DNA of 64,000 nt, taken from Escherichia coli O157:H7. Its GTDB lineage: Bacteria; Pseudomonadota; Gammaproteobacteria; Enterobacterales; Enterobacteriaceae. Below the pieces are notes generated by a model that did no database searches, was not told where the DNA came from, and saw only the letters and a list, made by a program, of their open reading frames with translations. The translations under genes and the position numbers were made by a program. The stretch is from assembly GCF_013167455.1 (NCBI RefSeq), contig NZ_CP038328.1. One strand, written 5' to 3'. Within the stretch, counting starts at the first letter, position 1. The number at the start of each line of letters is the position of its first letter. This document shows positions 44,826 to 64,000 of this stretch, one piece after another.

Positions 44826-44855
44826 ATCGCCTCCCATTAACTATTGCCAGCTACA

Positions 44856-44871
44856 AGCAATAATTGTGCCA
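44856..44871 (-). promoter_or_regulatory. sigma54 -24/-12 promoter for hyp operon
   Basis: minus strand TGGCACaattatTGCT (GG and GC correctly spaced), about 30 bp upstream of hypA ATG. Confidence 0.6.
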
Positions 44872-44984
44872 GTGTTGATTATCCCTGCAGTGAATAATGT
44901 CGATGATGTCGAAATGACACGTCGACACGGCGACGAAATTCACCAAAATCTTAAAAATCGCTTTAATAATAATAAATTAAAAGT

Positions 44985-45000
44985 TGGCACAAAAAATGCT
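44985..45000 (+). promoter_or_regulatory. sigma54 -24/-12 promoter for hyc operon
   Basis: TGGCACaaaaaaTGCT upstream of hycA ATG 45037. Confidence 0.65.
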
Positions 45001-45036
45001 TAAAGCTGGCATCTCTGTTAAACGGGTAACCTGACA

Positions 45037-45498
45037 ATGACTATTTGGGAAATAAGCGAGAAAGCCGATTACATCGCACAGCGGCATCGTCGCCTACAGG
45101 ACCAGTGGCACATCTACTGCAATTCGCTGGTTCAGGGGATCACGTTATCGAAAGCGCGCCTGCATCACGCCATGAGCTGCGCGCCGGACAAAGAACTCTG
45201 TTTCGTCCTTTTTGAACATTTTCGTATTTACGTCACCCTGGCGGATGGCTTTAACAGCCACACCATCGAGTATTACGTCGAAACAAAAGATGGCGAAGAC
45301 AAACAGCGGATTGCGCAGGCGCAACTGAGCATTGACGGCATGATTGATGGCAAGGTCAACATCCGCGATCGCGAACAGGTTCTGGAACACTATCTCGAAA
45401 AAATCGCTGGCGTTTACGACAGCTTATACACCGCTATTGAAAACAATGTGCCGGTGAATTTAAGCCAACTGGTAAAGGGACAAAGCCCGGCAGCATGA
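45037..45498 (+). CDS. hycA: formate hydrogenlyase regulatory protein HycA
   Basis: 153-aa ORF. Confidence 0.85.
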   Translation: MTIWEISEKADYIAQRHRRLQDQWHIYCNSLVQGITLSKARLHHAMSCAPDKELCFVLFEHFRIYVTLADGFNSHTIEYYVETKDGEDKQRIAQAQLSIDGMIDGKVNIRDREQVLEHYLEKIAGVYDSLYTAIENNVPVNLSQLVKGQSPAA

Positions 45499-60391: not shown

Positions 60392-61525
60392 CTACACCGG
60401 CAACGTTTTCAACAATCCAAATGCCTCTTTCATCCGATCCTCACTGACCACAAAGGCGCGAAGTTGGTCTGCATCGTCAACACCGCGCGCCACCATTCCC
60501 TGGCGTTCGGTATTAATCTGCCAGCGTAAATCCTGACGCTGGGTTTCGCCTGCCAGATGCAGCGGTAATTCCGGCGTTTTGATTTTCACCAGCATCGCCG
60601 GTAGTTTCAGCGGCGTGTTATTGCCGAGAAGATTTTTTGCCAGCACCATCGCGCTAAGTTGAATCGGCTGCAGGAACGGCAATACCTGACCGTTAATTTC
60701 CGCGCAATCGCCCAGCGCGTAAATATCGGCATTACTGGTTTGCAGATAACTATCGACGCAAACGCCGCGATTAATCGTCAGCCCGGCGCGTCGTGCCAGG
60801 GCGGTTTCCGGGCGCAGTCCGGTGGCGGCAATTACCGCATCCACTTCGATGCTGCGCTGGTGGTCCAGCGTTGCCAGAATGCCAGAATCCGTTTTTTCCA
60901 GCCCCTGCAACTGAGATTTCAACAGCAGATGAACGCCCATCTCCGTCAACCGATGCTGCAAGCGACTGCTTACTTCCGGTGGCATTAACGACGCCAGAAT
61001 ACTGGCAGCGTTGTCGATTAGCGTAACCATTTTGCCTGCACGACAAAAATCCATCGCCAGTTCGCTACCAATCAAACCACCGCCAACAATCAACACGCGT
61101 CGGGCATCCCGCAGTTGCGTTTCACAGGCGCGATACTCTTGCTGACTATTTAACGTCAGCATTAACTCACGCCCAGGCACTGGCGGGACAAAGGCGCTGG
61201 CACCGGTTGCCAGCACCAGCTTGTCGTATTGCCACTGATTATTCTGGCTTTTCACCACACGGGCTTCGGCATCGATATCCGTCACCCAGGTTTGCGGAAA
61301 CAGGAGCAGATTAAACTGCTCGGCAAATTCACCCGCCGTCTGGCGGGTAAGGTCGTCGGCACGTTGCCCCTGACTGATAACATGGCTGAGGTCAGGTTTG
61401 TTGTACTCATCCATACTGTCGGCGGCAATCAGGGTTAATGGAATACTGGCGTCCTGTTTGCGAATATTTTTCACCAGTTGGCGGGCGGCGAAGCCCGAAC
61501 CAATGATCACAATGCCGTTGCTCAT
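60392..61525 (-). CDS. norW: NADH:flavorubredoxin reductase
   Basis: 377-aa ORF; FAD/NAD Rossmann motifs. Confidence 0.9.
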
Positions 61526-62961
61526 TTTGCCTCCGATGCCAGTTCGTCAAAGACGTCTTTGCCGAGGGAGCATTCCGGGCACAGGAAGTTATCCGGGACT
61601 TCACTCCACGGCGTTCCTGGCGCAACGTCCTGCATTGGCTCGCCTTTTGCCGGATCGTAAATCCACTGGCAGACGCTGCACTGCATCCGTGGGCCGAGGT
61701 CAGCCGTCGTGGTGGCAGAGGTTTCTTCTTTAACTACCGTATTCACCGTGCTCTGCGGCAGCGGCGCGAGCGCCCACTGACGGGCGATTTCGCGACCGTG
61801 TTCACGGCATAACTCCAGAGCGTCCTGGTCTGGTCGCCATTTCGCTTTCAGGCTAAGCGACATTTCGAAACCCGCATCCTGCAGGCGCGTGGAAAGACGA
61901 TCCACCGCACCGCCGCTCCAGCCGTGAGAGCCGAAAGCACTGGCGCGTTTGTTACGGAAGCGTAATCCGGTCATCTCCTCCACCAGCCCGGCGATTTTCG
62001 GCATCATCACGTTATTCATCGTCGAAGTGCCGACCAGCACGCCTTTTGAGCGGAAGACATTGGTCAGGATTTCGTTTTTATCGCTTCGGGCGACGTTGAA
62101 AATTTTCACCGCCACGCGTGGGTCGGTTTCCGCAATCCCCTGGGCGATAGCGTCAGCCATCATGCGGGTGTTATTCGACATGGTGTCGTAGAAAATGGTG
62201 ATTCTGTCTTCCTGATAATCAGCCGCCCATTTCAGGTACAGCTCGACAATTTGCGTCGGGTTATCGCGCCATACCACGCCGTGAGAGGTCGCTATCATAT
62301 CGACTGGTAAGTTAAAGCCCAGGATCTCGGTAATTTTCGGCGTTACCAGACGGCTGAACGGCGTAAGGATATTGGCGTAGTAACGCTGGCACTGCTCAAA
62401 AAGCTCCGTCTGATCCACTTCATCGTTGAACAGATGCTCGTCGCAGTAGTGCTGACCGAAAGCATCGTTACTGAACAGCACCGCGTCGCCTGTCAGGTAA
62501 GTCATCATGCTGTCCGGCCAGTGCAGCATTGGTGTTTCGACAAAAATGAGCTGTTTGCCGTTGCCGATATCCAGCGTGTCGCCAGTTTTCACCACATTAA
62601 AATTCCACTCCGGATGATGGTGATGACCATTTATCGAGTCGATAGCGTTGGCTGTACAGTAGATCGGCGTATCGGGAATTTGTGCCATCAGTTCGGTCAG
62701 CGCCCCGGCGTGGTCCTCTTCTGCATGGTTAATCACGATGTAATCGATATCCGCCAGATCGATTTCATTACGCAGGTTCTGCACAAATTCGCGGCTGAAT
62801 TTATGGTCGACGGTGTCGATCAGCACGTTTTTTTCTTCGCGGATGAGGTAGCTGTTGTAGCTGCTGCCGCGCAGCGTTTTATATTCCGTGCCGTGAAAAT
62901 CTCGTACTTCCCAGTCACGTTGACCAACCCAATGAATGTTATTTTTCACCACAATAGACAT
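61522..62961 (-). CDS. norV: anaerobic nitric oxide reductase flavorubredoxin
   Basis: 479-aa ORF; C-terminal rubredoxin CxxC pairs. Confidence 0.95.
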
Positions 62962-63008
62962 AGCAACCTCAATTTATTCAGCGTGTTCTAAAAAGATGTC
63001 TTGCTAAT

Positions 63009-63024
63009 TGCAGATTGCGTGCCA
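63009..63024 (-). promoter_or_regulatory. sigma54 -24/-12 promoter of norVW
   Basis: minus strand TGGCACgcaatcTGCA about 50 bp upstream of norV start. Confidence 0.7.
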
Positions 63025-63079
63025 GTTTTTTATCTGATTGTTTTTACTCTATAAATAAAATTATGCTCATTAATGAGTA

Positions 63080-63135
63080 GTCAAAATGACTATCAATCCA
63101 ATGGTCGATATGACAATATCTATAGTCAAATTGAC
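63080..63135. promoter_or_regulatory. three NorR enhancer sites (GTCA-N3-TGAC type)
   Basis: gtcaaaatgac (63080..63090), gtcgatatgac (63104..63114), gtcaaattgac (63125..63135). Confidence 0.7.
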
Positions 63136-63147
63136 AGTGAGGCAAAG

Positions 63148-64000
63148 ATGAGTTTTTCCGTTGATGTGCTGGCGAATATCGCCATCGAATTGCAGCGTGG
63201 GATTGGTCATCAGGATCGTTTTCAGCGCCTGATCACCACGCTGCGTCAGGTGCTGGAGTGCGATGCGTCTGCGTTGCTACGTTACGACTCGCGGCAGTTT
63301 ATTCCGCTTGCCATCGACGGGCTGGCGAAGGATGTACTCGGTAGACGCTTTGCGCTGGAAGGTCATCCACGGCTGGAAGCGATTGCCCGCGCGGGTGATG
63401 TGGTGCGCTTTCCCGCAGACAGCGAATTGCCCGATCCCTATGACGGTTTGATTCCAGGGCAGGAGAGTCTGAAGGTTCACGCCTGCGTTGGTCTGCCGCT
63501 GTTTGCCGGGCAAAACCTGATCGGCGCATTGACGCTCGACGGGATGCAGCCCGATCAGTTCGATGTTTTCAGCGACGAAGAGTTACGCCTGATTGCCGCG
63601 CTGGCGGCGGGAGCGTTAAGCAATGCGTTGCTGATTGAACAACTGGAAAGCCAGAATATGCTGCCGGGCGATGCCGCTCCATTTGAAGCGGTGAAACAGA
63701 CGCAGATGATCGGTCTGTCGCCAGGCATGACGCAACTGAAAAAAGAGATTGAGATTGTGGCGGCGTCCGATCTCAACGTCCTGATCAGCGGTGAGACGGG
63801 AACCGGTAAGGAGCTGGTGGCGAAAGCGATTCATGAGGCCTCGCCACGGGCGGTGAATCCGCTGGTCTATCTCAACTGTGCCGCACTGCCGGAAAGTGTG
63901 GCGGAAAGTGAGTTGTTCGGGCATGTGAAAGGAGCGTTTACTGGCGCTATCAGTAACCGCAGTGGGAAGTTTGAAATGGCGGATAACGGCACGCTGTTTC
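63148..64000 (+). CDS. norR: NO-responsive sigma54 activator NorR; 3' end cut by window edge
   Basis: Frame open from ATG 63148 to window end; GAF region then AAA+ start (GETGTGKE). Confidence 0.9.

Follow-up and report, generated by a model that had tools for sequence, protein, structure and literature searches.

A norR-norVW control region from O157:H7-like Escherichia coli with the sigma-54 promoter and three NorR sites described in K-12

Introduction

The divergent control region between norR and norVW is already known and has been dissected in Escherichia coli K-12 by footprinting, mutagenesis, ATPase assays and electron microscopy. Three NorR sites of the form GT-N7-AC are located upstream of the sigma-54 norV promoter, and IHF binds between the norV start and these sites (Tucker et al. 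2010, PMC2831303). The DMS methylation footprint of NorR extends from -137 to -84 relative to the norV start (Tucker et al. 2010, PMC2831303). The conversion of any single site to GG-N7-CC abolishes the nitrite-induced expression of norV-lacZ, and NorR still binds the remaining sites after one site has been mutated (PMC2831303). Additionally, the sites stimulate the ATPase activity of NorR and the formation of open complexes, for which assays on the K-12 sequence have been published, and a ring-shaped NorR oligomer forms on 266-bp DNA (Tucker et al. 2010, PMC2831303). In gSELEX with K-12, the norR/norVW spacer is the single major target of NorR (PMC8249747), and the same spacer carries a gSELEX peak of the sigma-54 holoenzyme (PMC8743547). 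The sigma-54 regulon of Salmonella likewise includes norV, under the control of NorR (PMC3844500).

The region governs anaerobic NO detoxification, a process that contributes to the survival of enteric pathogens against host-derived NO, and it is a model for the enhancer-dependent assembly of a sigma-54 activator. The original NorR footprint was reportedly described by Tucker in 2004, and the K-12 norR-norVW region is said to have been studied also by Justino et al. in 2005 and Gardner et al. in 2003. Here, the norR-norVW region within a 64,000-nucleotide stretch of E. coli DNA (the window) is compared base by base with the K-12 region and with related loci in other species.

Results

The norR-norVW locus

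The genes on the two sides of the control region are as follows.

60392-61525, minus strand: norW, NADH:flavorubredoxin reductase, a 377-aa ORF and the second gene of the regulated operon
61522-62961, minus strand: norV, flavorubredoxin NO reductase, an intact 479-aa ORF and the first gene of the regulated operon
63148-64000, plus strand: 5' part of norR, the first 284 of 504 codons, continuing beyond the end of the window

The norV ATG lies at 62961 on the minus strand, and norR is transcribed divergently from an ATG at 63148, which leaves a norV-norR spacer of 186 bp (62962-63147) with 32% G+C. Pfam domains are consistent with the gene assignments: ODP/Lactamase_B, Flavodoxin_1 and Rubredoxin are found in NorV, and Pyr_redox_2 and Rbx_binding in NorW. 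The 284 NorR codons in the window encode exactly the N-terminal residues of the annotated O157:H7 NorR, the full-length form of which contains GAF, Sigma54_activat and AAA_lid domains and a GAFTGA motif at residue 262; judged by sequence, the norR product is an NO-sensing GAF-AAA+-HTH enhancer-binding protein. A scan of 62500-63600 against Rfam at E<=1 matched no family.

The 351 bases around the control region match several E. coli O157:H7 chromosomes at 100% identity. In a comparison of 5.1 kb with an annotated O157:H7 record, the window shows three base differences, none of them in the spacer, and the gene order in the annotated near-identical O157:H7 records is hypF, norW, norV, norR, gutQ. 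On these matches, the window is E. coli, O157:H7-like. An allele of norV with a 204-nt internal deletion is present in some O157:H7 genomes; in NZ_AP046301.1 (RIMD 0509939, O157:H7), for example, norV aligns at 100% identity in two pieces that cover only 86% of the gene, which corresponds to this deletion allele. In the window, norV is full length, so the DNA belongs to an O157-like strain that carries the undeleted allele.

Promoter and enhancer elements

The elements of the control region are arranged as follows, from norV toward norR, with site centres given relative to the proposed norV start.

62996-62999 (approximately 62998 +/-2), minus strand: norV transcription start, proposed from the GG/GC at -24/-12 and the published footprint limits
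63009-63024, minus strand (read from 63024 to 63009): sigma-54 (-24/-12) promoter of norVW, TGGCACGCAATCTGCA, located by pattern search
63025-63079, unstranded: AT-rich spacer between promoter and enhancer, the published IHF zone (spacer GC 0.32)
63080-63090, unstranded: NorR site 1, GTCAAAATGAC, a perfect GTCA-N3-TGAC centred at about -87
63104-63114, unstranded: NorR site 2, GTCGATATGAC, GTCG-N3-TGAC, centred at about -111
63125-63135, unstranded: NorR site 3, GTCAAATTGAC, a perfect GTCA-N3-TGAC centred at about -132

The promoter motif TGGCACGCAATCTGCA has one mismatch to TGGCAC-N5-TTGCA (C in place of T before GCA) and matches TGGCAC-N6-TGC exactly, and its GG and GC dinucleotides are 10 bp apart, as the sigma-54 class requires. 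It is oriented in the direction of norV, with a 3' end that precedes the A of the norV ATG by 48 nt. Taken alone, the sigma-54 motif occurs at chance frequency in the 64-kb window, with three matches at <=1 mismatch against 2.3 expected.

From the positions of the -24 and -12 elements and the published footprint limits, we infer that norV transcription starts close to 62998, which would give a leader of approximately 37 nt. With this start, the sites span -82 to -137, in keeping with the range of about 80-140 bp upstream of the start that is expected of a NorR enhancer, and on the norV-sense strand their G residues extend from -84 to -137. By symmetry, the opposite strand combined with a start at 62996 fits the published limits equally well, and the start is therefore quoted as 62998 +/-2; both the start and the footprint strand are derived indirectly via Tucker et al. 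2010 (PMC2831303).

All three repeats contain the GT-N7-AC core and are situated between the sigma-54 motif and the norR ATG, with centre-to-centre distances of 24 and 21 bp. The distance from the end of site 3 to the norR ATG is 12 nt, and the three sites together occupy the region 12-68 nt upstream of it. The relaxed core GTC-N5-GAC is found 15 times in the 64-kb window against 11 expected, an unremarkable total. The clustering is far beyond chance: among 1500 first-order Markov simulations of the window, one contained three copies within 60 nt (the analytic expectation is 6e-4 per window), and the Poisson probability of at least three repeats with the AT-rich composition of the spacer is approximately 4e-7.

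The first-pass annotation of the raw sequence had placed a minus-strand sigma-54 motif about 50 bp upstream of norV and three inverted repeats of the GTCA-N3-TGAC type between it and norR. Both statements are borne out, with a distance of 48 nt for the promoter motif and with the GTCG of site 2 falling within the described type.

Correspondence with the K-12 experiments

In the alignment with K-12 MG1655, the spacer differs at 2 of 186 bases, both outside the motifs: position 63067 is T in the window and C in K-12, and position 63099, between sites 1 and 2, is C in the window and A in K-12. The published mutagenic primers, mapped on the window, change T63081G/A63089C in site 1, T63105G/A63113C in site 2 and T63126G/A63134C in site 3, and they differ from the window only at these designed changes and at SNP 63099. 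Similarly, the 66-bp 'NorR123' oligonucleotide maps to 63075-63140 with one mismatch (63099), and the 21-bp NorR1 oligonucleotide maps onto site 1 (Tucker et al. 2010).

The published experiments concern the K-12 sequence, to which the window allele with its two spacer SNPs is related here by sequence comparison; no functional difference arising from the two O157-type SNPs is known or predicted. The first-pass annotation had also recognized the known NorR enhancer architecture and had named a comparison with published footprints as the test that could refute it. The outcome is favourable, as the published footprint and primers sit on the three repeats, and the locus, sites and promoter are the same as those mapped experimentally in K-12. 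The reading of the raw sequence was thus accurate, and the annotation can be transferred to the window at base resolution with high confidence.

Variation within E. coli

The spacer was found in 5425 of 5426 complete E. coli genomes. Among five sampled E. coli alleles, eight spacer positions are polymorphic and none of these falls within the 49 motif bases, which is weakly informative, such avoidance being expected by chance with a probability of approximately 0.09.

One genome of the 5425 carries a markedly different allele. In isolate AF3 (NZ_OZ547117.1; 2501-2641 of the extracted locus), a 45-bp deletion, equivalent to window positions 63087-63131, joins site 1 to site 3, so that one hybrid GTCAAAATGAC remains, and shortens the spacer to 141 bp, and several SNPs are also present in the AT-rich stretch. 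An assembly error may lie behind the deletion. If the allele is genuine, its norVW should be uninducible by NO; this prediction is made because all three sites are required according to the published work.

Related loci in other species

A triple-site pattern (GTCA-N3-TGAC, 9-17 nt, GTC-N5-GAC, 6-14 nt, GTCA-N3-TGAC) was searched in 100,044 species with one genome each. At least 120 loci match, where only a few are expected from base composition. Of the 120 loci listed, 54 have a NorR homologue (45-99% identity) whose N-terminal end is no more than 300 nt from the motif. Among the matches listed, 23 have norV and norR arranged divergently as in E. coli, with spacers of 158-281 bp; these are from Citrobacter, Enterobacter, E. 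albertii, Pseudescherichia, Phytobacter, Cedecea, Morganella, Shewanella and some Pseudomonas. Across the matches listed, norVW targets are found in Enterobacterales, Shewanella and some Pseudomonas, and the divergent gene encodes a globin-FAD-NAD flavohaemoglobin in most of the Pseudomonas, Comamonas, Diaphorobacter, Stenotrophomonas and Steroidobacter loci. This distribution of target genes matches the published NorR regulon (PMC2831303, PMC1274295).

The loci were chosen by the site pattern, and the conservation of the 22 site bases that it specifies is consequently circular; a motif-independent sampling of NorR loci has been published (PMC1274295). Several features lie outside this circularity or go beyond what the pattern demands. 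The -24 element is outside the pattern, and its conservation is hence not built in by the selection: of 24 aligned norV-norR sequences (the 23 loci and the window), 22 carry CGTGCCA (plus strand) unchanged, the other two have one substitution each in the first two bases, and GTGCCA is the same in all 24. The -12 element is more variable than the -24 element across these loci (TTGCA, CTGCA or TTGAT). The gaps between the sites are 13 and 10 nt in almost all aligned loci, although 9-17 and 6-14 nt were allowed. The inner A/T of site 2 is conserved without being required by the pattern; in most other genera site 2 reads GTCAATATGAC, a GTCA-N3-TGAC, from which the GTCG of E. coli is a minor deviation. 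Additionally, bases flanking the sites extend the palindromes in the norV-norR alignment.

In the remaining 66 of the 120 loci listed, a NorR homologue was not found near the motif (for example, L004, L024, L027-L029, L094, L104 and L118-L122). MAGs of Bacteroidales, Prevotellaceae or Lachnospiraceae account for many of the loci without NorR, and in them the palindrome occurs in tandem arrays with a period of approximately 23 bp; tandem repeats in Bacteroidales MAGs, together with unrelated hits, make up most of the 66. Several Pseudomonas loci also contain the motif with no NorR in the DNA examined.

The IHF zone and regulation of norR

The IHF consensus WATCAANNNNTTR, with up to one mismatch, has no match in the published IHF zone at 63025-63079. 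Its sole match in the norV-norR spacer at this threshold is TATCAATCCAATG (63091-63103), which lies in the gap from site 1 to site 2 and includes SNP 63099. The AT-rich stretch contains a partly conserved TTG(A/T)TTTT block in the norV-norR alignment, and on inspection of the alignment a perfect IHF consensus is seen in the aligned block of some other genera.

All three sites are 12-68 nt upstream of the norR ATG, so that a norR promoter or 5' UTR could not avoid overlapping them. For this reason, it is probable that NorR bound to the sites also lowers norR expression. Autoregulation of NorR is reportedly the subject of a 2002 paper by Hutchings. K-12 NorR is annotated as a 'dual regulator', it is described as regulating both norR and norVW (PMC8249747), and Rodionov et al. 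propose negative autoregulation for a NorR paralogue (PMC1274295). Against these points stands a sigma-70 scan for a norR promoter, which returned nothing on the plus strand and a single minus-strand match at chance frequency. Manually selected norR promoter candidates, such as TATAGT at 63121-63126, were dropped as they are not conserved in other genera. On balance, we consider it somewhat probable that autorepression through the sites is an added role beside norVW activation, the mechanism of which we infer from the position of the sites.

A stronger version, in which the repeats are mainly operators for self-repression by NorR and the activation of norVW is secondary, draws on the same proximity to norR and is quite unlikely. 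Activation of norVW via the sites has been demonstrated directly, and the loss of any one of them abolishes induction (PMC2831303); as an exclusive explanation, this version is excluded.

A fourth palindrome inside norV

A fourth perfect GTCA-N3-TGAC, GTCACGTTGAC, is present at 62914-62924 within norV codons 13-16 (G-Q-R-D), approximately 75-85 nt downstream of the proposed norV start. The wobble base of the Gly codon that completes it takes all four forms across genera, and 7 of 24 aligned sequences preserve the whole palindrome. In addition, the published 266-bp and 362-bp fragments end inside GTCACGTTGAC, which halves the motif, yet they work. As a functional NorR site, GTCACGTTGAC was rejected on the grounds that its wobble base varies and that working published fragments and fusions end within it; the coding sequence most likely gave rise to it by chance.

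Around the three sites, the two O157-type spacer SNPs and this palindrome are specific to the lineage, and they might alter the wrapping of flanking DNA about the NorR hexamer and so tune the NO responsiveness of the pathotype. Such an effect is very improbable.

The hypA-hycA region and possible sharing of the sites with FhlA

A second sigma-54 divergent region is present in the window, in the hypA-hycA spacer (approximately 44830-45037), with motifs between 44857 and 44999.

44871 to 44857, minus strand: sigma-54 motif upstream of hypA, TGGCACAATTATTGC
44908-44918: NorR-core-like repeat between the hypA and hycA promoters, GTCGAAATGAC
44985-44999, plus strand: sigma-54 motif upstream of hycA (ATG at 45038), TGGCACAAAAAATGC

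These motifs presumably represent the FhlA-dependent hyc/hyp promoters and their upstream activating sequence. A further good -24/-12 match, TGGCACATCTACTGC at 45106-45120 (plus strand), is inside the hycA coding sequence about 70 nt past its start, and it probably represents a chance match or a site that is not used.

The repeat GTCGAAATGAC shares the GTC-N5-GAC core of the NorR sites, which could suggest that the norV-norR sites are shared with, or mainly serve, some other enhancer-binding protein of the GAF type, for example FhlA. However, NorR protects the sites and norR is required for induction (PMC2831303), NorR gSELEX returns the norR/norVW spacer as its one major target (PMC8249747), and the Salmonella regulon assigns norV to NorR and hyc/hyp/hydN to FhlA (PMC3844500). 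No evidence was found for FhlA binding at the norV-norR spacer, and use of the sites by FhlA is extremely unlikely.

Finally, the reading of the repeats and the -24/-12 motif as chance matches in AT-rich intergenic DNA with no regulatory role has practically no probability left: 12 further GTC-N5-GAC copies in the window, the chance frequency of the one-mismatch sigma-54 consensus and the apparently accidental palindrome in norV are in its favour, but the clustering of the three repeats is beyond chance, their geometry is kept across genera beside norR, and published mutagenesis and footprints hit the same bases, so that mutational data have already refuted it.

Discussion

The region is almost certainly the norR-norVW divergent control region, acting by the published NorR/sigma-54/IHF mechanism. 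The motifs, their geometry, the flanking genes, the identity with the sequence studied in K-12 and the conservation across genera are established for the window, and the binding of NorR, the need for all three sites, the hexamer, NO sensing and the role of IHF are taken from the literature.

By this mechanism, three NorR dimers would occupy the GT-N7-AC repeats at approximately -87, -111 and -132 and form a DNA-assembled hexameric AAA+ ring in a poised state, while sigma-54 RNA polymerase would form a closed complex on the -24/-12 promoter (63024 to 63009). A bend introduced by IHF in the intervening AT-rich DNA would bring the enhancer into contact with the polymerase. The reaction of NO with the ferrous iron of the NorR GAF domain is expected to free the AAA+ domain from repression, and ATP hydrolysis would then open the promoter and allow transcription of norV-norW, which encode the NO reductase and its reductase. 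Expression of norR is probably lowered as well by the NorR complex on the sites.

The closest described system is the K-12 norR-norVW region. It is the same locus, with an identical length of 186 bp, promoter motif, three 11-bp sites and spacing, and it is distinguished from the window by two single-base spacer differences outside the motifs.

The flavohaemoglobin systems controlled by NorR (FhpR) in Pseudomonas and Comamonadaceae and the norA/norB systems of Ralstonia eutropha also have three tandem GT-N7-AC repeats, an adjacent divergent norR homologue and a -24/-12 promoter downstream. In place of a flavorubredoxin, their targets are a globin-FAD-NAD flavohaemoglobin or a haem NO reductase, their NorR is approximately 50% identical to that of E. 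coli, and the sites abut the norR start.

The FhlA hyc/hyp system resembles the norR-norVW region in its divergent spacer, its sigma-54 promoters, its GAF-domain enhancer-binding protein and a similar GTC-N5-GAC core. It differs in that the activator is FhlA, the signal is formate and there are two outward-facing promoters; we know of no three-site requirement in this system.

At glnAp2, tandem upstream dimer sites similarly seed an AAA+ hexamer of NtrC, which contacts the sigma-54 polymerase by looping. For NtrC, two sites suffice and control is exerted via oligomerisation, whereas NorR depends on all three and is controlled in a form that has already assembled on the DNA (Tucker et al. 2010, PMC2831303).
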